Assembly: GCA_038207455.1 (NCBI GenBank)
Contig: JBBQZT010000016.1
Coordinates: 3,298 to 67,297 of the forward strand
DNA length: 64,000 nt
Direction: 5' to 3'
Origin: Chloroflexia bacterium
Lineage (GTDB): Bacteria; Chloroflexota; Chloroflexia; Chloroheliales; Chloroheliaceae
Shown: piece by piece, positions 3,496-52,631 of the stretch
How positions within the stretch are numbered: the first letter of the stretch is position 1
How the letters are laid out: each line of letters begins with the position of its first letter
The notes under the pieces: generated by a model
What the model was told of the DNA's origin: nothing
What the model saw: the letters and a program-made list of their open reading frames with translations, nothing else
Databases searched by the model: none
Position numbers and translations under genes: made by a program

Positions 3496-4437
3496 TTGAT
3501 GACTTACGAACTCATAATGGTGACGGATTTCAGAGGCCATTGGCACGATGGGCAGACAACCAGTTACTTTAGTAGTATGTTTTATAACGTTGACGAAAAA
3601 ACTAGCCAGCAAGAAAAGAAATTTCAGAGTGCCCCAACAATTGAAGATTTGCGACCTTTCAATAACGCCCCAACCACTTTCATTAAAATTGCCTCTCAAT
3701 TTAATCAAAAGGCGGATGAAGCTTGGAGCGGTAGCGTAAGCGGATTTAGAGTGGATAAAATTGATAAAGGCAAGTTCTTGTTCGAAGTACATATAGATAA
3801 GAAAAAACCACTTGACGAGCTTGAAAAAGAGATTTGGTCTTCTGGCTGTTACATTTATGAGGTTGGAGAGCAAGCAGCGACTGAAGGAGAGACTTTCCGA
3901 TATTTCAAATACAGCGACACAACAAAGGTACAACAGCCAGTAATTTTATCAGCGTCGGAGCTTCGGCCACCCTTTTTCGACCTTTTTCCAAAATGTTCCT
4001 GGCAGGACTTTGAGACTTATACGTATTACTTAATTAGGCTTTTGGGCATACATCAGGCTGGCAAATTTCCGTCAGAAGCACAAGCTGGAAAAGCAGATGG
4101 CTTCTTCAGAATTAGGGGTTTAATTGTAATGTGGGATGCTACAATTAAGACAGATTTCAAGGATTGGAAATCAGAGCAGATTAGGAACTTTTGTAGTAAG
4201 CTTTTTCACGAAAACTTACTAGACCTGCCAAAGATAGAAACGGTTGATTTTTCTCAATACGACAAACAGGTTTGGATTGTTATAAGAAGTGAGCAAAGCT
4301 ATTCGATAAATACTATAGATGGTTTTCTCGTTAAAAAAGTTAGCGTGCGAGATTTGATCGAAATATACGAAGCTAGATTGAGAGATGGATTTGACGAACG
4401 AAATTTGGCAACCAAACTTAGCAATATTGGAAGTTAG
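3496..4437 (+). CDS. Hypothetical protein, AT-rich orphan; C-terminal half weakly restriction-endonuclease-like
   Basis: 313-aa ORF with AAGGAG upstream. It is visibly AT-richer than its flanks. The C-terminal region reads WQDFETYTYYLIRLLG..GKADGFF..LIVMWDATIK. Confidence 0.55.
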   Translation: MMTYELIMVTDFRGHWHDGQTTSYFSSMFYNVDEKTSQQEKKFQSAPTIEDLRPFNNAPTTFIKIASQFNQKADEAWSGSVSGFRVDKIDKGKFLFEVHIDKKKPLDELEKEIWSSGCYIYEVGEQAATEGETFRYFKYSDTTKVQQPVILSASELRPPFFDLFPKCSWQDFETYTYYLIRLLGIHQAGKFPSEAQAGKADGFFRIRGLIVMWDATIKTDFKDWKSEQIRNFCSKLFHENLLDLPKIETVDFSQYDKQVWIVIRSEQSYSINTIDGFLVKKVSVRDLIEIYEARLRDGFDERNLATKLSNIGS

Positions 4438-13374: not shown

Positions 13375-15318
13375 ATGTATGTAGTGGGGACGGCGGGCCA
13401 CGTGGATCACGGCAAAAGTACCCTGGTCAAGGCGTTGACAGGGATTGACCCTGACCGCTTGCAAGAAGAAAAAGCCCGCGAAATGACTATTGATTTGGGT
13501 TTCGCCTGGCTCAAACTGCCGAGCGGCCAGGAAATCAGTATTGTAGATGTGCCGGGTCACGAACGCTTTATCAAAAATATGCTGGCGGGTGTGGGCGGTT
13601 TCGACGCGGCCCTATTTGTGATTGCGGCGGACGAAGGGATAATGCCTCAAACCGAGGAACATCTGGCTATTTTGAACTTGTTGCAAATCGAACGCGGCGT
13701 GGTGGCTTTGACCAAACGCGATATGGTGGACGACGAATGGCTGGAATTGATGCAGGAGGAAGTGCGCGAAAAATTAGCCGCCACTTCACTCAAAAACGCC
13801 CCGATTATTCCGGTGTCGGCCCGCACTAGAGTTGGTCTCAAAGAGCTTTTAAAAGCGTTGGACACTTTATTGGCTGGTGTGCCGCCGCGCACCGATATTG
13901 GCAAACCACGTCTGCCGATTGACCGGGTGTTTAGCATTAGCGGCTTCGGCACGGTTGTGACTGGTACGCTGATTGAGGGACGCTTAGGAGTGGGCCAGGA
14001 AGTTGAAATCCAGCCGGGTGGCCTCAAAAGCCGGGTGCGTGGTTTGCAAATGCACAATAAAAAACACGATAGCGTCGCGCCGGGCAATCGGGTGGCGGTC
14101 AATCTAACGGGGCTGGAAGTAGGCGATTTACGGCGCGGTATGGTGCTGACCGTGCCGGGCTGGTTGGACGGCAGCGACAGATTAGACGTGCGGATTAGTG
14201 TGCTGGCCGACTCGCCCGTTGAAATCGGCCAAAACAGCCGCTTCGACTTTTTTAGTGGAGCGGACGAGGCGGTAGCCAGCATCACCGTGTTGGACAAGGC
14301 GCGGCTAGAACCGGGTGAAAGCGGTTTGTTGCAGGTACGTCTCAGCCAACCGTTGGCGTTGACAAAGGGAGACCGTTTTATTTTGCGTTTGCCTTCGCCC
14401 AGCCAAACCATCGGCGGCGGTATCGTGATTGACCCGCACCCGCTCCGCCATAAACGCTTTCAGCCCGAAGTTATCACCGCTCTGGAAACATTAGAAAAGG
14501 GTACGCCTGCCGATATTTTGTTACAAGCTCTGACAGTGGGGGACAAGCCGCCCCGCGACTTGCGTACTTTGGCTGAGGAAACTAGCCTACCCACAAAGGA
14601 AGTCCAAACCAGCAGCGTGCGTCTGCTCAAAGATGGTCTGGCCCTGGTGCTGGCGGACGATTGGGCCGAGCTTGAGCAACGCGCCCATAATGATGAAATA
14701 ACCGAACTTGCGCCGTCCCAAATTATAATTTCGTTAGCAGCCTTGAACCGACTCAAAGAAAAAGTTAGCGGCTTGCTCCAGAATTATCACAAGCAGTTTC
14801 CACTCAAACGGGGGATGGCTCGCGAGGAGCTAAAAAGCCGCCTGGGTATCGTCAGCCCCAAAACTTATAACTTCGTGATTGCGCGGTTGGTCAATGAAGG
14901 GGTGATAGCCGAAAGCGAAGGCAAAGGCGGCACGGGGACAGCCCTCAGTCTGCCAGATTTCGGGGTGACTTTTACGCCTACCCAGCAAAAACAAGCCGAT
15001 GAGTTATTGGCAGCTTACCGCAAAGAACCCTACTCGCCGCCGCCTGTAGCCGAACTTGGAACCGACCCGAACGTAGTAGCCGCGTTAGTAGATGATGGGC
15101 GGCTCAAAAAAATTAGCGAGACGATTTACTTTGCGATGCCCGCCTACGAAAGTATGGTGCGTAAAATCCTGGCGACTATTGACGCACAGGGCAAAATCAC
15201 CCTGGCCGAGGTGCGGGATATGTTTAATAGTAGTCGCAAATATTGTCAGGCCGTTTTGGAATATATGGACGACCAAAAGTTGACCCGTCGCCTGACCGAC
15301 GAACGAGTACGTTGGTAA
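13375..15318 (+). CDS. selB: Selenocysteine-specific translation elongation factor
   Basis: G-domain motifs [18 protein letters not shown] and TKRD, EF-Tu-like domains II/III, and a long C-terminal winged-helix extension. 647 aa. Confidence 0.9.
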
Positions 15319-23630: not shown

Positions 23631-24950
23631 TCAGACACAATGTTCAGATACTTTGCCGCGAGTGGTACATTCACAAAACGCCAGGTCGTGGTCAATACGG
23701 CTGGGCAGCACAACCCTTTTGAAATAACGCAAGGCGTTTTGGCGGTTAGCCAACTCCTGGCTCAATTCCCGTTCCTCTTTGTTTTTAGTGCTGGATACAG
23801 TCTGTAGATACTGGTCGTACTCACGCTGCATATTGGCTGGATGTTGCTGGTTTAGCTGGTTTAGGTTGCCCTGGTAATGCGCGTGGCGACGATTGATGGC
23901 ATCAGCATTTAACAGCACCACCGCTAAAGGTCCGGTTACACCAGCAACCAGGAGCGATAGCGGAAAGACTACAATTTGTAAAACAATATTAGACCCAGCG
24001 AAAATTGAAACAAATACTATCAAGACTACCAGTTCAATTACGGTAGCAATGCCCACTTGTTTCCAGGTAGCAGGAATTTTCAGCTTGGTTAAAGCTGGCC
24101 CTATACCACAGATCAGTAATAATAACCAGGCAATACTACCTCCACCACTGGTTAAAGCCGACAACAACGCTATCACTGCCCAACTAGCTACCCCCACGAT
24201 AATTGGCAAACGTAGCAGGTTGAAAAACTGTTTGATGTCCCCGATACTGCTAATCTTGCCAGTAGTAGCCATATTTGTTTGTAATTGATGACTGGCTTGG
24301 GTATAACCGACTTCCATTTGGGCCACCCGGCTTTCGTACTGGCTTTTAGCTTGTTCAGCAAGGGTGACAAATCGGACTTCGCTCTCGCTCCTAAGTCTGT
24401 TTAGTTCTTGGGGAGTAGCAAGGTGTTCAAGTCTCTCAAAACAACGTTGGCGGTCAATACATTCGAGACAATCGCTACCTTTTAACTTGACCGCGTTGCA
24501 TTTTGAGCATAACTCACCGTTTTTACTCTCAAGTTCCAGGAAGAAAATGGCTCCTAACGCCGCTTGTCCACAATTACAGGTTCTGATGATGGTGTTAGTG
24601 CCGTTGATTTTGCCACAATTAGGACATTTCCATTCCCGTTGTAACTTATCCTGCTCGGCTTTAGTTCGCTTTTGCAAGTTAAGAGACTCTCCAGCGATAG
24701 CAGTCTGCTTCTCTGTAGCCCATCTTGTGGCGCGGGCTTCGCTTAAACTGCCTAAGGACGCGGCTGCCGTTACCTGGTTATAGAAAGCTGATCGTTCGTT
24801 GACTTCCACCGAGCGTGCATTAGCAAAGGCCGATTGTTCATCGGCGACTGCTGACCTGTGTGCTGACCGAGCGACTGTAGCGGAAGAAGCAGCCACACTT
24901 TCCGCAGCCTGTTCCACTCTCCTACGATGTTCTTGCCAATTATCACTCAT
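23631..24950 (-). CDS. Membrane protein with two zinc-ribbon motifs and coiled-coil segments, unknown function
   Basis: CPNCGK-x14-CNCG and CSKC-x9-CLEC motifs, 4-5 hydrophobic helices in the middle, and a start 27 nt after the kinase stop on the same strand. Confidence 0.6.
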   Translation of the reverse strand: MSDNWQEHRRRVEQAAESVAASSATVARSAHRSAVADEQSAFANARSVEVNERSAFYNQVTAAASLGSLSEARATRWATEKQTAIAGESLNLQKRTKAEQDKLQREWKCPNCGKINGTNTIIRTCNCGQAALGAIFFLELESKNGELCSKCNAVKLKGSDCLECIDRQRCFERLEHLATPQELNRLRSESEVRFVTLAEQAKSQYESRVAQMEVGYTQASHQLQTNMATTGKISSIGDIKQFFNLLRLPIIVGVASWAVIALLSALTSGGGSIAWLLLLICGIGPALTKLKIPATWKQVGIATVIELVVLIVFVSIFAGSNIVLQIVVFPLSLLVAGVTGPLAVVLLNADAINRRHAHYQGNLNQLNQQHPANMQREYDQYLQTVSSTKNKEERELSQELANRQNALRYFKRVVLPSRIDHDLAFCECTTRGKVSEHCV

Positions 24951-24977: not shown

Positions 24978-27900
24978 TTAAAGTTTTGTGACCTTCACCA
25001 AATTGATACGAGCTGCGGCAGGGTTACGGTCAGTAGTGCGTATTTCGATACCAATATAACCTGTAGGCGGAATTTTGTCCTGGTTGCTTTGGTCAGCAGT
25101 AAAAGAAGCAATCATGGTATCGCCATCAAAAGCCGTGACAGAACTGCCCTGCACTATAATTTTCAAATTGATTAGGTTATTAGCTCCGTTCCATTTGACC
25201 GTTTCTCTATTAAGAGGTATAGATTGTCCATTCTTTATACTGACCCACTGGACGTAATTAGCAGTCAAATATAATTTGAGTGTGTTTTGGGAGTTTTGAG
25301 TGCGTACTGCTACCGATATATTCCCATTATCTTGATAATTCACAGTCTCAGGTAAATTGGTAATTTTGGCTTCTACCATATAATCTTTCCAATCGAGGCT
25401 ACCTACGTAAGTAGCCCCCTTTTGACCGCTAAACAAAGTATAGTTTCCGTTATCTACTGACCAACTGCCGCCAACCGAAACATCTGGTTTCCAATCGGCT
25501 TTTGGCCCATTTATGAAATCGTCCTGGAAAAGAATATTGGCAGGTAGGGTGTCAGTATGGTTATTAGCTGAAGCTTGAGCCATAGCCGCCATTTTAGTGA
25601 CCTTGACCAACGAGAAATGTGGAGCAATATCGTTTTTGTCAGTGAGCCTGGTTTGTAGCCCAATATATCCAGCCGTCGGGATTTTATCTTTATTAAGTTG
25701 GTCAGCAGTAAAGGAAGCCAACGGGTTATCACTGTCGTAAGCAGTGACAGTGTTACCCTGGACTACTATCCGTAGATTGATAGTATTGTTGGAACTATGC
25801 CAGCCTATTAAGTCACGGTTAAGGGCGGTGGGCTGTCCATTTTTTACGCTAAACCATTGCACATAATTAGCGGTCAGATACAAACTAAGTTTATTTTGAG
25901 GGTCTTGAGTACGCACCGACACCCAAATATTGCCATTATCCTGGTAATTTACAGTGCTGGGCAGATTGGTAACTTGAGTTTCCAAACTGTAATCTGTCCA
26001 ATCAGAACTACCGATATAGGTGAAACCTTGCTTACCGTAAAATAAACTATAACCCGCACCATCTACGCTCCAACCACCGTTTCCGACGGTTGTATCAGGT
26101 TTCCAGGCAGAATTAGCCCCATTCTTAAAATTATCTTGAAACAAAACCCCCGTTGCAGAATAAGATAAGGGTGGGTCAGACACAGCAGGTTGAACAGGTG
26201 GCAAAAGTTTGGTGATCTTTACATTTGAAAAACGCGGTACTCCACCTGTTTTAGTGGAGCGAATACTTAATCCAACGTAACCTGCTGCCGGGATTTTGTC
26301 TTTGTTAGCTGCGTCAACTATAACGCTGGTGATAAGATTAGGGCCATTATAAGCGGCAATTGAATTACCTTGCACCACTATTTTCAGGTTGATACTGCTA
26401 TTGTTAGACTGCCAACCTTGCGCTTGACGGTTAAGCCCCAATGTTTGGCCGTTACGTTCCGAAAGCCACTGTACATTATTAGCAGTCAGGTACAATTTGA
26501 GCGTGTTTTGAGGGTCTTGAGTACGCACTAACACCCATAAGTTGCCGTTATCCTGGTAGTTTACCGACGTGGGTAAATTGGTAATTTTCATTTCGATGGT
26601 GTAGTCTACCCAATCAGGGCTACCCACGTAAGCACTCCCTTTATCACCACTAAACAAAGTGTAAGCCCCATTATCTACCGACCAGCTACCATTGCCAATA
26701 GTAGTATCGGGCTTCCAATCGGGCTTGCTACTATTCAGAAAATCGTCCTGAAACAAAACGTCGCCAGTTTTAAGGGTCGCTACCCCTGCGGTGGCGTTCA
26801 GGCTGCTACCATTCGCTGCTGTCGCAGCTGCAATGGCCGTAACTGTAAAAGAGTTGCCGATAGGCAGCTGACTGCTGGTAGAGGGACTGGGAACAGTCGT
26901 GTATACTGTTTTGTCCCGAAAAAACGAATTCAAGATTGGTATTACAACGAAAAGCACGATGATACCGCCTATAATCCAGGGTAAGGTAAAACGCGGTCTG
27001 ATGTTGGTGAGACCACCAGAAGGACGGTTAGACCGTCCAGGCTTAAAATTGGGCGGAGGTACAACGTAACGCGAGTAATCTACGTTAGACGAGGATGGTG
27101 TTACGTTGATCGGATTAGCAGGTCTGGTATTAGAAATCGGCGGTGTGGAACGATTAGGGTTGATAAATTCCGTTTGTACAAATTGCGCCTGCGATGGTGG
27201 GACTACTACCGTAGCTGCAATAGCGGGGCTATTAGAATTATTACCTGCTAAAGCTAAATTAAAAGCTTTAGCAAAATCTGTAGGTGTCTTAAAACGTTTT
27301 TGCGGGTCTTTTTCCAATGCGCGTGCTATGACCTGTTGCAATGTAGCTGGCACTGCTATCCCATTGCGGTCTTTGATTGGGTTGGGTACTTTGGCACTCT
27401 TAACTGCTTGATATAAATCGCCTACATTTGTAGCATCAAATAAAGGTTTGCCTGTAATCAATTTAAGCGTAATCACTCCCAAAGCCCAAATATCGGCTTG
27501 AGGGCCAACTTTGCCAAAATTTGTAATTTGTTCGGGAGCCATATATTCGGGTGTTCCCATGCTATAGCTGCCAACCGTAAGATTATGATTATTGTTATGA
27601 GCGATGCCGAAGTCGCACAAACGCAAAGTCCCATCCTGCATAAACAAAATGTTGGCGGGTTTAAGGTCGCGGTGGATTATGCCTTTGGAGTGGGCGTAAT
27701 CCAAAACATTCGCTAACTGCTGCAACCATCCGGCAATCGCGGTTAGAGTAGGCGGGTTTTTCACCACATATTCATTTAAATTGCCTGCGGTAGCACATTC
27801 CAAAACTAGATAAGGCACTATCCCATAGTTGCCCTCATCTTCGACCTTGATAATATAGGGGTTGTCGCGCAGCTGGTTTAATATCTGTATCTCGTTCTTA

Positions 27901-28070
27901 AATCGCTTTTCAGCTTCGTTATCCAGGTGCAGGCCAAACTTGATAGCCACTAATTTATTGGACAAGGATTTATGCCTGGCTAACCAGACTTCACCGAAGC
28001 TACCTGATCCCAATTCTTTTATCAGAATGTATTTGTTCCCAATTTCCTCATCGGCTTTGAATTTAGGCAT
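24978..28070 (-). CDS. Hanks-type Ser/Thr protein kinase with a TM helix and three tandem extracellular jelly-roll (DUF1080/LamG-like) repeats
   Basis: GSGSFGEV, VAIK, HRDLKPANI, DFG and GTPEYMAPE motifs. TM helix WIIGGIIVLFVVIPIL. Three repeats of about 185 aa (approx 26206-26759, 25594-26148, 24981-25537), each starting (V/I)LFQD(D/N)F..W(K)PD..G(S/G)WSVD. Confidence 0.9.
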   Translation of the reverse strand: MPKFKADEEIGNKYILIKELGSGSFGEVWLARHKSLSNKLVAIKFGLHLDNEAEKRFKNEIQILNQLRDNPYIIKVEDEGNYGIVPYLVLECATAGNLNEYVVKNPPTLTAIAGWLQQLANVLDYAHSKGIIHRDLKPANILFMQDGTLRLCDFGIAHNNNHNLTVGSYSMGTPEYMAPEQITNFGKVGPQADIWALGVITLKLITGKPLFDATNVGDLYQAVKSAKVPNPIKDRNGIAVPATLQQVIARALEKDPQKRFKTPTDFAKAFNLALAGNNSNSPAIAATVVVPPSQAQFVQTEFINPNRSTPPISNTRPANPINVTPSSSNVDYSRYVVPPPNFKPGRSNRPSGGLTNIRPRFTLPWIIGGIIVLFVVIPILNSFFRDKTVYTTVPSPSTSSQLPIGNSFTVTAIAAATAANGSSLNATAGVATLKTGDVLFQDDFLNSSKPDWKPDTTIGNGSWSVDNGAYTLFSGDKGSAYVGSPDWVDYTIEMKITNLPTSVNYQDNGNLWVLVRTQDPQNTLKLYLTANNVQWLSERNGQTLGLNRQAQGWQSNNSSINLKIVVQGNSIAAYNGPNLITSVIVDAANKDKIPAAGYVGLSIRSTKTGGVPRFSNVKITKLLPPVQPAVSDPPLSYSATGVLFQDNFKNGANSAWKPDTTVGNGGWSVDGAGYSLFYGKQGFTYIGSSDWTDYSLETQVTNLPSTVNYQDNGNIWVSVRTQDPQNKLSLYLTANYVQWFSVKNGQPTALNRDLIGWHSSNNTINLRIVVQGNTVTAYDSDNPLASFTADQLNKDKIPTAGYIGLQTRLTDKNDIAPHFSLVKVTKMAAMAQASANNHTDTLPANILFQDDFINGPKADWKPDVSVGGSWSVDNGNYTLFSGQKGATYVGSLDWKDYMVEAKITNLPETVNYQDNGNISVAVRTQNSQNTLKLYLTANYVQWVSIKNGQSIPLNRETVKWNGANNLINLKIIVQGSSVTAFDGDTMIASFTADQSNQDKIPPTGYIGIEIRTTDRNPAAARINLVKVTKL

Positions 28071-47750: not shown

Positions 47751-48430
47751 GAAAGATTAACTCGTTCCAGGGCCGCTTCTAGCACCTGTTGGCGCAAAGT
47801 CATGGTCAAATCGCCGCGTGTGCGTTCCAACACCCCGCGTACCAAATCCGTGGTGCGGCGCAAACCGTTGGTTAAAGCATCGGGGAAATCCACCGTCACC
47901 AACTGGCTATAGACTTCTTCCATTTTATCGAGCAATTCTTCGCAGCGTGTCACCTCTTGTGCTCCGTGCCTAATTAAATCCAGAATATAGCGGCGCAACT
48001 CACTGGCTGCCTCACCCAACCCGTTGAGATACGGCGCGTCTTCGACTGCCAATGCCTGGGGAGAAGGCAAAGGTTCACCCCGCACCAGGGCGTAGGTCAA
48101 ACACGCCTCGGCATACTCTTTTTGCGCGTCCTGCACATATCCGGCCCAATAAATATCTTGATAATTCGCCAAATCGTTTTTAATCGCAATCAAGCGAGTG
48201 CGGCCTTGTTCCAAAAGTTCGCTGGCCTGCTCGAACTGGTTGCGGTGAACAGCCCGTATCGCGTTAGCCACGTTCCGAATCACACCCCGCGACTCCGCCA
48301 ATGCGCGTTCACGGGCAGCGTTTTTCTGCTCCAACCGCGCCATCACCGCCGCTACCGTTTCTTCTATAGAACTGACGTTATTTTGATTTGCTTCGGACAA
48401 AATTTTCTCCTTAATACGGTTAAAGCTCAC
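47747..48430 (-). CDS. Translin-family (COG2178-like) nucleic-acid-binding protein
   Basis: ..VEDAPYLNGLGEAASELRRY.. and ..LRRTTDLVRGVLERTRGDL.. align by eye with the translin C-terminal helices. GTG start overlaps the upstream stop (GTGA). The stop codon lies in the MITE terminus. Confidence 0.65.
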   Translation of the reverse strand: MSFNRIKEKILSEANQNNVSSIEETVAAVMARLEQKNAARERALAESRGVIRNVANAIRAVHRNQFEQASELLEQGRTRLIAIKNDLANYQDIYWAGYVQDAQKEYAEACLTYALVRGEPLPSPQALAVEDAPYLNGLGEAASELRRYILDLIRHGAQEVTRCEELLDKMEEVYSQLVTVDFPDALTNGLRRTTDLVRGVLERTRGDLTMTLRQQVLEAALERVNLS

Positions 48431-49284
48431 CGCTTTTGGGCCATCACATTCAAACGGCGGGCGGTCTCAACTATTTTTTCGTAATCGGGCAAACTGGTTT
48501 TCCAAACGTCGGGTATGGCTTCCTGGCCGTGATATGCTCCGGCTAATACTCCAATCAAGGGTGACAAATCTGGATTGATGTTTTTGAGGCTGAAAGCCAG
48601 GTTTATAACTTCCTCAAAGCTATCTTTGCGGGCGGCCAAAAGATAACAAGCGGCGGCCAATACGTCATAGGTCGTCAGATTGGGGATACTTTTGGCCCAC
48701 AGACGGTTTACGTTTTTGAAATCGGTTTGCTGTAAATCCACGTCAGCCAGTTCGCCCGCTTCGACGTTATCAACCAAAGTCTGGCGTTCTTCCAAATAAT
48801 CTTGCGCTACCAACAGTTTCTGGTAAGACGGATGGAAAAAATCAAACGGCAAGACATCCAGAATAGCACTCATCAAATCTTCGGGCATAATCTCGCGCCG
48901 CGCCAACAAATAAGCAGCTTTGGCGATTGCCAACATGGTGTCATTGGGCTGCCAGGGGACAGCAGGGTTTATAACTCGGTTAGGATATTCCGCAAAAAAT
49001 TTGTCTTTATCAAAGCCAGCGTAAGTGTAAAATAAACCCCAAACTGCTATCCAGGCTTCGGTTGTGATAGGTTCTTCCCAAACCAACTCTGACGGCTCAA
49101 ATTGCGGTTTCCAATTCACGGCCAGCTTTAGCGGATAATCATCTTCCATCAAACCTTCCGCCAAAAGTACGGCCATTTCAAGGTCTTCGCCCAGGGCTTT
49201 ACCAGGCGCACCCAGCTGATTACAGGCAATCGCTAAACCTAGCATCGCTCCCACAAAATTTGACTCGTAATTTTCTTCCTTCAA
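48427..49284 (-). CDS. ADP-ribosylglycohydrolase-like protein, apparently lacking the metal-binding Asp/Thr motifs; start uncertain
   Basis: The C-terminal ..LIGVLAGAYHGQEAIPDVWKTSL matches the ARH signature. The expected GDALG and GGDTDT positions read ACNQLG and NINPDLSP. A TTG at 49284 after GGAG avoids overlap with the PHP gene. Confidence 0.5.
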   Translation of the reverse strand: MKEENYESNFVGAMLGLAIACNQLGAPGKALGEDLEMAVLLAEGLMEDDYPLKLAVNWKPQFEPSELVWEEPITTEAWIAVWGLFYTYAGFDKDKFFAEYPNRVINPAVPWQPNDTMLAIAKAAYLLARREIMPEDLMSAILDVLPFDFFHPSYQKLLVAQDYLEERQTLVDNVEAGELADVDLQQTDFKNVNRLWAKSIPNLTTYDVLAAACYLLAARKDSFEEVINLAFSLKNINPDLSPLIGVLAGAYHGQEAIPDVWKTSLPDYEKIVETARRLNVMAQKR

Positions 49285-49294
49285 TCCGAATTTT

Positions 49295-49323
49295 CTCCGC
49301 GCCCTCTGCGTCCTCGGCGGTGA
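49295..49323. repeat. Family D short element
   Basis: The minus strand reads CACCGCCGAGGACGCAGAGGGCGCGGAG, in the 43-nt spacer between the PHP and ARH-like genes. Confidence 0.45.
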
Positions 49324-49327
49324 ATTC

Positions 49328-50185
49328 TTACGCTGCGTCGGCCTGCGGCACGTCCACTGCGAAGCGTTCCAACAAATCGCGCACGAGTTCGGGGTTCCAG
49401 GGGGTCGGTTTGCGGGCCTCGCTGTGGCTATCGTTTCCGGCACTAACTACCAATTTGTGTTGCCGAGCGAAATCCAGAAAGCGTGCGACGGTTTCGGGTG
49501 CGTGCGAAGGGTGATAAGCTTCCAGCCCCATCAAACCTGCCTCGACTAATTCACGCAAAACCTGCGTCGTAGCCGCCGAAAAACTGTACTCCTGGCGGCC
49601 AGGGTGAGCAATAACTGGAATACCGCCTGCCGCAATCGCCGTTTTGAGGACTACCTCGGCTGGCTGCGAACAAACTTTTTCCAAACCTAACTCCAAACAC
49701 ATACTAAAAGCGCGGTCAAAACTGGCTACTTCCCCACCCTTAACTAACGCACGCGGAATATCTACCGACAAATGATGCCCGTCGGGGCGACGAAAACTGT
49801 CGAGTAAACTTAATTTATAGCCGCGTTTTTGCAAACCTTCAATGATAGAGGCGTGTTTAGCGTGCATCTGGGCCTGCGTATCGGCCAGTAGCGCGTTAAG
49901 TCCGATATTTTCAGGGTCAAAATTAAAAACGAGCAGGTGATACATCGCCTCTCGCCATTTTATAGTTATTTCTACTCCCGGCACGAACTGAATTCCGCGT
50001 GCCTGAGCCAACTTTTGAACGGCCCGTACCGACCCAATTGTATCGTGGTCACTGACCGTCATCACTTTAACACCCGCCTGAACTACATTCTCCACCAACG
50101 TTTCGGGTGTCCATGCCCCGTCGCTGGCCGTCGTGTGCATATGGAAATCCACGCCCTGACCCGGCATTTTTAATAACTGATTCAT
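49328..50185 (-). CDS. PHP-domain phosphoesterase (TrpH/YciV-like)
   Basis: VDFHMHTTASDGAWTPE, ..VSDHDT.., ..IAHPGR.., ..GNDSH.. metal-ligand motifs. Confidence 0.85.
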   Translation of the reverse strand: MNQLLKMPGQGVDFHMHTTASDGAWTPETLVENVVQAGVKVMTVSDHDTIGSVRAVQKLAQARGIQFVPGVEITIKWREAMYHLLVFNFDPENIGLNALLADTQAQMHAKHASIIEGLQKRGYKLSLLDSFRRPDGHHLSVDIPRALVKGGEVASFDRAFSMCLELGLEKVCSQPAEVVLKTAIAAGGIPVIAHPGRQEYSFSAATTQVLRELVEAGLMGLEAYHPSHAPETVARFLDFARQHKLVVSAGNDSHSEARKPTPWNPELVRDLLERFAVDVPQADAA

Positions 50186-50309
50186 CTTTTATCTAATACT
50201 CCCGATTTTTACATTTTATAAAGTCTATTTTCTTAGTCAACTCTATTTTAACATAACCGAATCGGCTACGCACCAGCACAAAAGCCTAAGAAAATTATTA
50301 CTATAAAGG

Positions 50310-51005
50310 TTACAGAGGATTAGAAGACATTGACATGAGTTTTTTGACTAAAAGATGAACTGTAGTAGATGGATTGAGTTTTTTGACTCTATTGTGGGGA
50401 AATTCCTCAAGAGCAATTTCTTCGGTTAAGTTCGGATGCTTCTCCAGCATCCTTTCAGCATTTTCAATAGCATCGTTGGTTTTATCACGTATTTTTTCAA
50501 ATACGGGCATACTCTCCTGGTAGCCACTAATACAAGTTTTCATTTTGACCTTAGCTTCCTTACAGTTGCCAAATGGCTGCGTGTTATAGCCAAAATGTAG
50601 TAAAAACCAAAATTCTATACAAGGGTTACATAAAGCTAACTCAAGTTTATTATCTTGCGCTTTATTAACGGCAGAGTGGTAAGAGGGGTTTTGTGACAAG
50701 TTTTCCACATCAAAAACACACCAAACTTCGTCAAAGGCCGCTATGTTAAGCGAATCTTTAGCTTCCTTGTCGCGTTTAGTCTGCAACTCTAAAGCTTTTT
50801 CAACTACCGTTATAGCTGCCCCGCCCTGACCGACAACCACAACTTCCAGAGGTTTCAATTTCAAATGCTTGCAAAGAGCTCCGAAGTAGTTTGGTTCTGT
50901 CTCCTTGCCTTCACAAACAATCAGAATAATTTCTTTTGGTTTACGGCTATTTGCACGTGGGTACGAGCCAAACTTCTCAGGGCTTTTTGATTTATGCCTA
51001 GACAA
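50310..51005 (-). CDS. RloB-like (Toprim-type) protein, predicted nuclease partner of the upstream ATPase
   Basis: N-terminal ILIVCEGKETEPNYF and downstream VWCVFDVEN are the RloB/Toprim acidic motifs. TTG start overlaps the ATPase stop by 8 nt. The gene is AT-rich. Confidence 0.75.
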   Translation of the reverse strand: MSRHKSKSPEKFGSYPRANSRKPKEIILIVCEGKETEPNYFGALCKHLKLKPLEVVVVGQGGAAITVVEKALELQTKRDKEAKDSLNIAAFDEVWCVFDVENLSQNPSYHSAVNKAQDNKLELALCNPCIEFWFLLHFGYNTQPFGNCKEAKVKMKTCISGYQESMPVFEKIRDKTNDAIENAERMLEKHPNLTEEIALEEFPHNRVKKLNPSTTVHLLVKKLMSMSSNPL

Positions 51006-52317
51006 TAGAACTTTCTTTCGCTAATGGTTCTGACAACAACGCTTCTGAAATAAAAGGAATAGCTCCGTAACGTCCTTGTAAATAACCCTTTTGCAAAGCT
51101 TCTTTATCACGAGGACTGTATTCCAAATAGGGTACAAGACTCGATGCACCATTACTTTTTTCAACGAACCAGATTTGGTCACGTCGTAACAAAGTCAAAT
51201 CTTGTAGGGTAGTATCATGAGTATTAAAAATTAGTTGTGCGCCGTTTTTGTTGATTTGTGGATTATGAAACAGGCGTACCAATGCTCTAACAAGGATAGG
51301 ATGCAAACTAGCATCAAGCTCGTCAACTACCAGAACTCGCCCGCCTTCTAATACATCTAACAAAGGCGCACTTAGAGCAAATAAACGACGTGTGCCAAAA
51401 GACTCATCTTGCCACGGTAAAAAAACTCCTGCACCTGCTTGCTCTCCATATTGATGTTTGAATTGAACACTAACAGAAGGCTGGTTAATTTTAGAAGTTA
51501 AGGCGTTAATTTCCCTGTACAAAGGTAATAACTCGTTAGGAAAATTATCTGGAATGGCTGTTTCTTTAACTTCCTCTTGGACCTGATAATCAACGATTTC
51601 TAAATCTAGCTGCTGAATCAAAGCTTTCATTCCGGTAGCATAGTTTTCATCTTGAAGTAGCCTACGCTTGTTGACTTGTTCATAAACCTCTATCTCTTGA
51701 GTAATGTCTATAATAAGCAAACATCGCAAAAACCAATTTAGTACGCCTAGTAATTGCTTACTATTATTTTGGGCCGCTGTTGATAAGAAAAGTGCATCTG
51801 GTCTAGTGTTATCTTGCAATTTCAACTTTTTATCACTAAATTTTGAGCCAAAGTACCATTCTGACTCATCTGAGTCCGTTTTCGGATTGCGTTCAAACCA
51901 GGTTTGAGGCTGTCCTTTAGGGTAGGCGATTAACCATTCTTGATAAACACGTTTGTTATCAAGAGTAAATCCGTACTGGTAACGGACGTTTTGATAAATA
52001 AAATGTATCTCAAACTCAGTTGGGTTACTGGCTGTAGCTACATCTAACAAGAAAGGGCGGACACCTGTTTCGCTGCCAATAGGCCGAATAAAAGATCTAA
52101 GAATAAATTGCTCTACATAACGAAGTGCTTGTATAATATTACTCTTGCCAGAAGCGTTCGCACCATAAATTACAGCACTATTTACTAGACGCTGCTTGCC
52201 AAAATTTTCAGGCGAGGTCACGTTTTCGGACAAATTGTTATCAGGACTGGCAACCAGACTGAAAACCTGTTCGTCCTTGAAAGACTTGAAATTTTTGAAT
52301 TTGAATTCGATTAACAT
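50998..52317 (-). CDS. AAA_21/ABC-type ATPase (AbiLi / AriA / OLD-ATPase-like)
   Basis: MLIEFKFKNFKSFKD.., Walker A GANASGKSN, Walker B/D-loop LVVDELDASLHP, H-loop IFNTHDT. The gene is AT-rich. Confidence 0.85.
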   Translation of the reverse strand: MLIEFKFKNFKSFKDEQVFSLVASPDNNLSENVTSPENFGKQRLVNSAVIYGANASGKSNIIQALRYVEQFILRSFIRPIGSETGVRPFLLDVATASNPTEFEIHFIYQNVRYQYGFTLDNKRVYQEWLIAYPKGQPQTWFERNPKTDSDESEWYFGSKFSDKKLKLQDNTRPDALFLSTAAQNNSKQLLGVLNWFLRCLLIIDITQEIEVYEQVNKRRLLQDENYATGMKALIQQLDLEIVDYQVQEEVKETAIPDNFPNELLPLYREINALTSKINQPSVSVQFKHQYGEQAGAGVFLPWQDESFGTRRLFALSAPLLDVLEGGRVLVVDELDASLHPILVRALVRLFHNPQINKNGAQLIFNTHDTTLQDLTLLRRDQIWFVEKSNGASSLVPYLEYSPRDKEALQKGYLQGRYGAIPFISEALLSEPLAKESSIV

Positions 52318-52631
52318 AGCTTTGCTTTCTTTTGCTTATAATAGACCCTGTAAAGCTACCTAAATCATAAGGTATCTACAAAAATCTAATATTGTGTCTA
52401 TTATTGCATAAAACCTGCAATAATGTCAATAGGATTGTTTTTTTTGACAAAATTCTTATAGTTCTCATATATGATTAAAGTAAAAAGTCATCATCTACCA
52501 GCAGCTAACAAATCTAAACCGCATTCGATGCAATAAAATCGCTGTAAAGCGTTTGTGTGAGCGGCGTGTTATAATTCTAACAATCAAACTATAAAAGATT
52601 TATGTAAAGTCAAATAAGAGGAGTTTTTATA

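Follow-up and report, generated by a model that had tools for sequence, protein, structure and literature searches.

An AbiL-type ATPase-RloB cassette at a fixed chromosomal site of a Chloroflexia bacterium, with a promoter palindrome shared across phyla and a probable exchange of its ATPase insert and RloB

We report on a two-gene cassette, coding for an ABC-type ATPase and an RloB-like protein, that lies between a PHP phosphoesterase gene and an aconitase gene in a 64,000-nucleotide stretch of DNA from an uncultured Chloroflexia-type bacterium (contig JBBQZT010000016.1, assembly GCA_038207455.1; the whole stretch is referred to as the window and positions are counted from its first letter). 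Our data argue rather firmly for an AbiL-type module, most likely an abortive-infection or toxin-antitoxin (TA)-like anti-phage system, which appears to be an old resident of its site with an exchanged ATPase insert and RloB. First reported in 1999, AbiL is today placed in one group with PARIS, OLD and Gabija (PMC13064643, PMC10802264). The cassette by itself would be one more AbiL locus, in an under-studied phylum; what it adds to the known AbiL family is a promoter palindrome shared across phyla and a natural chimera of an ATPase head and an insert-RloB portion.

Both genes are located on the minus strand. The AbiLi-type ABC ATPase gene (50998-52317; ATG start, 439 amino acids, aa), by analogy coding for the sensor or regulator, precedes the RloB/AbiLii-type gene (50310-51005; 231 aa), the product of which is the presumed nuclease effector. 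The two genes overlap by eight nucleotides (nt) at TTGTCTAG (50998-51005, minus strand), which provides both the TTG start of RloB and the TAG stop of the ATPase gene, implying translational coupling of the pair; the open reading frames (ORFs), the motifs and the junction are exactly as the original prediction had described them. TTG is the sole canonical in-frame start before the conserved core of RloB, and the RloB gene has a weak Shine-Dalgarno sequence.

The assignment to AbiL, which had been proposed on the basis of the split ATPase and Toprim architecture, was borne out by profile searches. With the PADLOC profiles the ATPase gave AbiLi as the best of 62 matches (PDLC02335; 3.7e-102, 339.7 bits, residues 1-429) and the RloB protein gave AbiLii as its top match (PDLC02337; 1.6e-30, 105 bits), and all 60 aligned RloB homologues also matched the AbiLii profile. 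In Pfam the ATPase matched AAA_21 (5.5e-45) and AAA_15 (6.4e-12), while the small protein, which had been placed in the RloB/Toprim families, matched RloB over its full length (PF13707; 1.1e-41, 1-195 of 195); there was no match in NCBIfam above its cut-offs. On these PADLOC profiles we assign the cassette as a two-gene AbiL-type module of an AbiLi-like ABC ATPase and an AbiLii/RloB-like Toprim protein. An AbiLi match and an AbiLii or RloB match, adjacent and co-oriented in one operon, are all present, and defence annotators would call the cassette AbiL.

Judging from their sequences, both proteins are intact family members with all catalytic motifs. The AlphaFold model of the ATPase (pLDDT, the per-residue confidence measure, 85.6) is predicted to have a bilobed ABC head of the Rad50/SMC/PtuA/OLD type, and Foldseek with this model retrieved Rad50 (4.2e-12) as well as SMC, JetC, PtuA and OLD (6p74) at 1e-8. 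The ATPase carries the motifs YGANASGKSN, VLVVDELDASLHP and LIFNTHDT. Across 49 homologues, G52, A55, G57, K58 and N60 of the Walker A motif or P-loop (YGANASGKSN, residues 51-60; 52138-52167, minus strand) are invariant, as are S306, G308 and T309 of the ABC signature ESFGT (51391-51405, minus strand), D332 and E333 of the Walker B and D-loop segment (VLVVDELD, residues 328-335; 51313-51336, minus strand) and N365 and T366 of the H-loop FNTHD (51214-51228, minus strand), in which H367 is nearly so; the Q-loop residue Q138 is conserved. Few parts of the ATPase family are as conserved as the C-terminal tail SPRDKEALQKGYLQGRYGAIPF (residues 401-439; 51001-51117, minus strand), which nevertheless has a pLDDT below 50. 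In the same homologues R403, Y412, G415 and Y417 of the tail are invariant and E406, K410, G411, L413, R416, G418, A419 and P421 nearly invariant, and the tail is probably a docking peptide, for RloB or for a neighbouring subunit.

The variable part of the ATPase is an inserted domain (residues 151-310; 51388-51867, minus strand), which we regard as a candidate module for trigger sensing and effector docking. The mean identity within the family is 0.31 for the insert versus 0.44 for the head, and across the family the divergence of RloB tracks that of the insert (partial rho 0.50) more than that of the head (0.34). The insert is situated where Rad50 and SMC proteins carry their coiled coil. 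By analogy, its properties fit a partner-docking or sensing module, as in AriA of the PARIS system.

In the structural model of RloB (pLDDT 88.6) a basic N-terminal tail is followed by a Toprim-like core and a C-terminal helical domain. The first motif, ILIVCEGKETEPNYF (50883-50927, minus strand), comprises strand 1 (residues 27-31) and the conserved Glu E32, together with G33, T36 and E37; among the 60 homologues G33, T36, E37 and Y40 are invariant and E32 is present in 58. The second motif, VWCVFDVE (50703-50726, minus strand), places D99 and E101 after strand 3 (residues 93-99) in a D-x-D/E arrangement. D99 is invariant, and as 30 of the 60 homologues have D and 28 have E at position 101 the DxE of the window is a normal family variant. 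E131, which follows strand 4 (residues 122-127), and H137 are invariant and lie in CNPCIEFWFLLH (50595-50630, minus strand). The basic tail, 26 residues in the window (50928-51005, minus strand; pLDDT 63-66), recurs as a tail of approximately 28 aa with 9-10 Lys or Arg residues before strand 1 in all 42 RloB family members examined, and makes a candidate nucleic-acid-binding arm.

RloB thus has, in its sequence and in its predicted structure, a conserved Glu after strand 1 and DxD/E after strand 3, which we took as the mark of a Toprim fold with its four-stranded parallel sheet. A profile-profile comparison (hhalign) of RloB with the OLD-family Toprim aligned both motifs in register at P = 0.0012, a score that none of 40 column-shuffled controls reached, although this is one test with a thin template of five sequences; against the single P2 Old sequence, or with a shallow RloB profile, P was 0.07-0.13. 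Motif 1, ILIVCEGKETEPNYF, aligns with VLLVEGKTETNVLY of P2 Old in a way that is obvious by eye, and CVFDVE of motif 2 aligns with hhhhDxD of OLD. In addition, three of the 60 RloB family members weakly matched the retron I-B ATPase-Toprim profile. HHpred has been reported to link RloB to OLD_TOPRIM (PMC10440598).

The cassette is embedded in an AT-rich island (50186-52631), as the original prediction had noted in comparison with the PHP and aconitase genes. The GC content of the island is 37.4% against a window mean of 49% (2-kb windows, standard deviation 3.4%), and the lowest-GC 2-kb window of the whole 64 kb starts inside the cassette, at 50601. GC at third codon positions is 0.32 and 0.375 in the cassette genes versus 0.54 in the PHP gene and 0.605 in the aconitase gene. 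We found no direct or inverted repeats, tRNA genes, integrase or Rfam families marking the island. The prediction that the pair was acquired horizontally stands as far as its foreign origin is concerned, to which the AT-richness, the patchy distribution and the presence on mobile elements point; a recent, private island is not what we see, as a sister lineage has a pair at the same site.

The sister lineage is represented by four metagenome contigs (L087, L088, L089 and L101), the proteins of which are 96% (aconitase), 95% (a 227-aa protein), 92% (PHP) and 90% (MazG) identical to their counterparts in the window. Between these flanks it has an ATPase-RloB pair, with identities to the window of 60% for the ATPase and 33% for RloB. 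These averages conceal a mosaic: the lobes of the ATPase head are 72-81% identical, whereas the insert (residues 151-310) and RloB are both at approximately 33%, which is as distant as unrelated family members. The same pattern was seen in the sliding nt identity, which is 0.80-0.89 over the promoter, the leader and the first approximately 75 codons (52450-52140), 0.39-0.52 over the ATPase insert (51870-51380), 0.64-0.80 over the C-terminal ABC lobe (51380-51110), near random (0.29-0.61) across RloB, and approximately 0.9 from about 25 nt beyond the RloB stop on the PHP side. The segment strongly diverged from the sister allele can therefore be given the approximate limits 50286-52140; flank-level homology is back at GCTTTTGTGCTGGTGCGTA, approximately 95 nt upstream of the PHP ATG. 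The window, the sister lineage and L102, the next closest PHP relative, share this block (50262-50285) in conserved form, and it makes up the right-hand boundary of the variable segment. Downstream of the block there is a promoter-like TTGACT-16-TAAAAT for the PHP gene (50213-50240, minus strand).

Four flanking genes have a synonymous divergence (dS) of 0.46-0.56; within the cassette, dS reaches 1.07 over codons 1-75 of the ATPase and is saturated for the remainder, keeping in mind that dS is rough in AT-rich genes and in segments of 74 codons. Because selection on the protein cannot inflate dS, these values suggest that the two alleles had separated before their hosts did. In the head lobes the nonsynonymous divergence (dN) is well below dS. 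Moreover, of 903 family pairs only that of the window and L087 unites a head identity of 68% or more with an RloB identity below 45%. We infer that the insert and RloB portion was replaced by recombination at a conserved site rather than by divergence in place, and that the fixed PHP-aconitase site has long housed the cassette, with the insert and RloB exchanged in one of the two sampled lineages. For the insert and RloB of the sister lineage we found no close relative that might represent the donor, in a comparison set biased towards the window's own relatives. The GC content of both alleles and of the closest cassette, L086, is 0.36-0.40.

The occurrence of the pair at the same site in two lineages, which the original prediction had named as a possible counter-argument in the form of a conserved core gene, does not make it a core gene of the lineage, because the alleles are far more diverged than their flanks (saturated dS versus 0.46-0.56) and because more distant relatives are without the pair. 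Specifically, in the closest genome representatives (Chloroflexia metagenome-assembled genomes with aconitases 76-78% identical) and in distant PHP relatives synteny is lost and no cassette is found beside the PHP or aconitase gene. We looked for an empty site at 80 aconitase loci of GTDB representatives and at 11 PHP loci of JGI metagenomes and found none, synteny being absent beyond the sister lineage. The same data bear on the idea of a domesticated housekeeping pair, i.e. a RecF/Rad50-like ATPase with a Toprim partner acting in repair or replication. It would account for the shared site and for the intact ORFs and motifs, but not easily for a 37% GC cassette in a 49% GC genome, nor for saturated dS where the flanks are at 0.5 and for an RloB at 33% where the flanks are 90-96% identical; with the pair also absent beside PHP or aconitase in the next-nearest relatives and the same cassette present on plasmids and phages of other phyla, we consider this idea highly improbable.

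The closest cassette, L086, has an ATPase 66% and an RloB 57% identical to those of the window and lies on a 2.5-kb contig with 36% GC, while L102 (PHP 71% identical, the highest after the sister lineage) ends 183 nt upstream of its PHP gene. We considered whether L086 and L102 form one locus since both come from the same sample (run SRR33230254); the contigs end without overlap, and the link is unproven. Separately, the sister lineage has an extra gene for a 993-aa cupredoxin/Big_3_5 protein with 52.5% GC (L087:4787-7768, also present in L088 and L089), inserted with the aconitase promoter region on one side and the cassette promoter on the other. It corresponds to the intergenic region 52470-52560 of the window, where it is missing, which means that DNA was inserted or deleted at this intergenic site at least once more.

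Upstream of the ATPase gene, the leader and the promoter are similar in the two alleles. A sigma-70-type promoter was predicted on the minus strand at 52400-52429, with TTGACA (52429-52424) as -35 box, an 18-nt spacer and a TG-extended -10 box AATAAT (52405-52400), together an 11/12 match, as originally proposed. The number of promoter-like sites in the region (five, versus 6.2±2.5 in shuffled sequences) shows that such a scan alone proves nothing; what makes this promoter credible is its conservation in the sister lineage, where it reads TTGATA...TGCAATAAT, and the same layout in more distant cassettes (L086, L002 and L004). The 5' leader of approximately 80 nt between the -10 box and the ATG (52318-52399, minus strand) is 80-84% identical to that of the sister lineage, and its predicted RNA fold is not significant (z = -1.83). 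No terminator was found after the RloB gene, and none separates it from the PHP gene.

These features also speak to the view that expression or activity of the cassette has been lost and that a silent or decaying remnant is left. The TTG start of RloB, its weak Shine-Dalgarno sequence and the lack of a terminator would agree with it, while the ORFs are free of frameshifts and stops, RloB keeps all invariant family residues apart from the conservative C126 for S and I130 for F, the promoter and the candidate operator described below are intact and conserved, and in the head lobes dS clearly exceeds dN; a remnant is in our judgement barely credible.

Over the spacer and -10 box of this promoter lies a palindrome, ATTATTGCA-GGTTTTA-TGCAATAAT (52400-52424), with perfect 9-bp arms, the TTG at 52420-52418 and the CAA at 52406-52404. 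The window holds 50 matches to TTG-N11-CAA, of which this is the sole one with extended symmetry. In five cassettes whose contexts are unrelated and whose ATPases are 47-66% identical, a common upstream core CTATTGACAT is followed by the inverted repeat, the right arm of which is the -10 box. We then compiled 47 non-redundant upstream regions of 130 nt each, de-duplicated by 8-mer content though not phylogenetically independent. TTG-N11-CAA was present in 23 of these, versus one to five regions for other spacings from 5 to 18, and the longer TTTG-N11-CAAA in 18, versus none to two for other spacings. The density of TTG-N11-CAA is 2.95 per kb upstream of the cassettes and 0.025 per kb in the rest of these loci, i.e. 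approximately 120-fold higher. Inverted repeats of the TTTG type occurred in 15 of the 47 regions compared to 1.2±1.1 in dinucleotide shuffles, in 11 of 664 AT-rich control windows and in one of 47 regions when searched in the opposite orientation, a signal that may partly coincide with promoter elements.

The consensus of 26 instances is the 23-bp tTTTTG-nn-(A/T)7-n'n'-CAAAAa, in which the centre is not symmetric; 73% of the instances, versus 31% expected, have complementary bases at the two inner pairs, with all four pair types represented. In an independent set the motif was present in three of six plasmid cassettes (Psychrobacter, C. beijerinckii and Klebsiella), with a one-mismatch version in Agrobacterium. 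The motif-bearing cassettes span 23% to 62% GC, and its presence does not correlate with the length or charge of the RloB tail, with protein length or with GC. The position of the palindrome relative to the promoter varies, from over the -35 and -10 boxes in the window to just upstream of a TATAAT box in C. beijerinckii.

We considered other explanations for the palindrome. Plain inverted repeats were also enriched downstream of RloB (13 of 44 versus 4.1 expected), as expected for a generic intergenic feature, and the plain inverted-repeat statistic was for this reason dropped in favour of the TTG-N11-CAA geometry. A terminator was rejected since the T-run is 5' and the A-run 3' on both strands, which is the wrong orientation. 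Like any palindrome it would fold as an RNA hairpin (z = -3.8), but in the window transcription is predicted to start downstream of it. The palindrome therefore probably acts in DNA, as an operator, and not as a hairpin in RNA, and expression of the cassette is probably autoregulated through it. Since no regulator gene travels with the cassette, one of the two proteins may itself be the binding factor; as a speculation, the binder might be RloB, through its basic N-terminal tail or its helical C-domain, or a complex of the ATPase and RloB. We found no published description of the palindrome in the searchable literature. On the Bacillus mycoides plasmid p77 (L190:1000-1200) the upstream region is without TTG-N11-CAA and has two copies of AGTGA-AAAAA-TCACT instead, at approximately -105 and -27 from the ATG, which suggests operator diversity within the family.

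Taken together, the palindrome and the mosaic allele lead to a joint claim, namely that the palindrome is a cassette-intrinsic operator recognised by the AbiL proteins themselves and that the insert and RloB form an exchangeable specificity unit, which we put forward tentatively and hold to be less probable than its contrary. If the operator part is true, AbiL-type systems would be self-repressing, TA-like modules, the expression of which rises when infection disturbs the complex. The palindrome predicts sequence-specific DNA binding and autoregulation in a system that lacks an annotated regulator; it also occurs on Klebsiella and E. coli plasmids of 4-5 kb, which are easy to handle. If the exchange part is true, the insert and RloB would recombine between cassettes through the conserved ATPase head, with the window and sister alleles as an example. 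The chimera would pinpoint the part of the ATPase that travels with the effector, and thereby a place to look for trigger recognition and effector docking, and the locus would be an example of a defence cassette that stays at one chromosomal address as its specificity module changes.

The pair is more than a chance find, as both proteins have thousands of homologues that stand side by side in this way, on chromosomes as well as on plasmids and prophages; it belongs to a very common family, of which the window cassette is an ordinary member. A word-indexed search gave at least 7,999 matches for the ATPase and 1,198 for RloB, and an exhaustive profile search gave 14,226 RloB clusters at 50% identity, 9,705 of which reach 1e-10. 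The RloB gene directly follows the ATPase gene in 80 of 85 loci, and two of the five exceptions are without downstream DNA; the junctions are usually overlaps or gaps of 0-6 nt (-1 in 20 loci, -26 in 20, -8 in five and -11 in five). The absence of an accessory gene, previously noted for the window, holds family-wide: these 80 loci have just the pair, and in 47 non-redundant loci there is no recurrent third gene, only genes of P2-like phages recurring beside it. What recurs across phyla and mobile elements as a unit is the promoter and the two genes.

Plasmid records account for 184 (ATPase) and 75 (RloB) matches, including enterobacterial plasmids of 4-5 kb, and some records name the genes 'abiLI' or 'RloA'. 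The pair is also present in a few deposited phages, and 203 relatives were found in viral contigs of IMG/VR. In approximately ten non-redundant viral loci from IMG/VR (within L105-L184) the pair lies beside P2-like terminase and portal genes, integrase genes or replication genes, which places it in prophage hotspots known for collecting defence systems. One Chloroflexi relative adjoins a transposase, an AAA_13 ATPase and McrBC, and in an Agrobacterium plasmid the cassette is followed by an N-6 DNA methylase.

This distribution can also be read in terms of a selfish TA or addiction module that stabilises its carrier DNA, with RloB as toxin, the ATPase as antitoxin and no dedicated anti-phage role. 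The ColE1-type enterobacterial plasmids of 4-5 kb carry little beyond the pair, the promoter bears a palindromic candidate operator of the kind found in type II TA operons, AAA-Toprim pairs have been validated as TA pairs (PMC10440598), and AbiLii of F. nucleatum is toxic in E. coli (PMC3985639). Then again, it was a phenotype of abortive infection that defined lactococcal AbiL (Deng 1999, cited in PMC13064643), relatives reside in prophage hotspots and beside McrBC, a chromosomal single copy would gain little from addiction, and the divergent, sensor-like insert suggests an arms race. We regard a purely selfish role as unlikely, while recognising that it overlaps with the TA-like anti-phage system that we favour. 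As to an accessory of restriction-modification (R-M) in the manner of the Campylobacter RloA/RloB, acting only together with R-M, e.g. by sensing anti-restriction proteins, the family name derives from R-M-linked genes (PMC10440598, PMC10802264) and the methylase after the Agrobacterium cassette is in keeping with it; yet no R-M or other defence gene was found within approximately 10 kb of the cassette in the window, and no R-M gene recurs beside the pair in the 47 non-redundant loci, which leaves this a very slight possibility.

For the AbiL-type anti-phage system that we prefer, a mechanism can be sketched by analogy with PARIS and P2 Old, in which a Toprim nuclease would be sequestered and released. 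An oligomer of the ATPase would hold the RloB nuclease inactive until the hypervariable insert (residues 151-310) senses a cue from a phage, whereupon ATP binding or hydrolysis might free or activate RloB. The acidic site of RloB (E32, D99, E101 and E131) is expected to be metal-dependent and would cut nucleic acid, possibly tRNA, and the cleavage would arrest the infected cell and result in abortive infection. A tRNA target would have parallels in AriB, a tRNase, and in P2 Old, now reported to be one as well (PMC11464382, PMC12445682).

Several points weigh against parts of this picture, in addition to the roughness of dS and the thin Toprim template mentioned above. Foldseek with the RloB model against the PDB and BFVD gave no significant Toprim match and no RloB-OLD connection, and neither did any scan of profile hidden Markov models (HMMs) against sequences; a Toprim was likewise not significant in lax Pfam scans (E up to 10, 60 family members) and PDB sequence-profile searches. 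The exact operator motif is missing from 24 of the 47 upstream regions, and no DNA-binding domain that might account for operator binding is recognisable in either protein. AbiLii of L. lactis is not toxic in E. coli, and Dy et al. (2014) saw no rescue from the toxicity of F. nucleatum AbiLii when AbiLi was provided in trans (PMC3985639). Deep et al. describe AbiL and RloAB as structurally distinct from PARIS (PMC10802264), which means that the sequestration model may not transfer. Finally, in tblastn searches of 72,556 plasmids with both proteins, no Lactococcus plasmid was among the listed matches or the most frequent organisms.

The neighbours of the cassette in the window (PHP phosphoesterase, ADP-ribosylglycohydrolase, MazG-like protein, aconitase, acyltransferase and Ser/Thr kinase) are ordinary genes, with no PADLOC matches except a generic match to a winged helix-turn-helix. 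The ORF of the ADP-ribosylglycohydrolase as called mechanically (48427-49443, minus strand; 338 aa, GTG start) overlaps the PHP gene (49328-50185, minus strand) by 116 nt. In an identical public contig the gene call is 275 aa, and in the comparison with the sister lineage the first approximately 50 residues are weaker and interrupted (67% over residues 1-42, followed by a gap); the true start is probably downstream of the mechanical one. Other low-GC genes in the window are a 313-aa ORF without Pfam match (3496-4437, plus strand; 39% GC) and a 439-aa ORF without Pfam match (23631-24950, minus strand), which adjoins a 1030-aa Ser/Thr protein kinase gene (24978-28070, minus strand; 44% GC), and these may represent further acquired DNA. 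The 647-aa ORF at 13375-15318 was considered as an aconitase paralogue and rejected, being unrelated and GTPase-like.

Among the known systems, AbiL of L. lactis plasmid pND861, in the form in which PADLOC and DefenseFinder model it, is among the closest, with two co-oriented, coupled genes, an AAA_21/AAA_15 ATPase followed by RloB, and no third gene; the window cassette differs in being chromosomal and in its host, an uncultured Chloroflexia-type bacterium. AbiL has been grouped with the systems that combine an ABC ATPase with TOPRIM (PMC11464382, PMC12409363), and its mechanism is still unsolved (PMC13064643, PMC10802264). The RloA/RloB proteins of Campylobacter are of the same families and are encoded inside type I R-M loci, of which there is none at the window cassette. 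The AAA-ATPase and Toprim pairs of the NetFlax TA network are also of the same families, with node D44 corresponding to RloB and paired with an AAA node, and behave as toxin and neutralising ATPase (PMC10440598), but the pairs validated experimentally had TOPRIM_OLD toxins and not RloB.

The relationship to PARIS, OLD and Gabija is more distant, as the wording of the original prediction rightly had it. PARIS (AriA/AriB) similarly combines an ABC ATPase bearing an inserted domain with a separate Toprim-type effector, and the variable insert of the window ATPase occupies the position of the coiled-coil insert of AriA, which binds the trigger Ocr and cradles AriB (PMC10802264). The effector is a different one, RloB (PF13707) in the window and AriB, a DUF4435/OLD-Toprim protein, in PARIS; neither the window RloB nor any of its 60 homologues matched AriB, DUF4435 or PF20469. 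On the window ATPase the AriA profile PDLC02979 scored 2.9e-16, far below AbiLi at 3.7e-102, and the second-best profile, PDLC02980 ('AriA', 6.8e-42), has the coordinates of Pfam AAA_21 and was read as a generic AAA_21 model. Profile searches retrieved no sequence relative of the ATPase from the PDB, AriA included. The OLD family (P2 Old; classes 1-4) likewise unites an ABC ATPase with a Toprim nuclease, and its VLLVEGKTE aligns with IVCEGKETE of RloB, but Old is one fused polypeptide with PF20469 (1.2e-17 for P2 Old, no match for the window RloB), whereas the window has two proteins and a much more divergent Toprim. Rhizobium phage RHph_Y3_1 (L195:904-2602) carries a split OLD, in which a 409-aa ATPase annotated as 'ATP-dependent endonuclease' is followed after a 1-nt gap by a separate 155-aa TOPRIM-annotated protein, and which is an architectural intermediate between the fused Old and the two-gene systems. 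Finally, Septu (PtuA/PtuB; also retron PtuAB) and Gabija (GajA/GajB) have related AAA_15/21 ATPases, with a PtuA fold match and weak PtuA and GajA profile matches for the window ATPase. These systems are not built on RloB, their partners being an HNH nuclease (PtuB) and a UvrD-like helicase (GajB), both of which are absent at the window locus, where the only partner of the ATPase is RloB.

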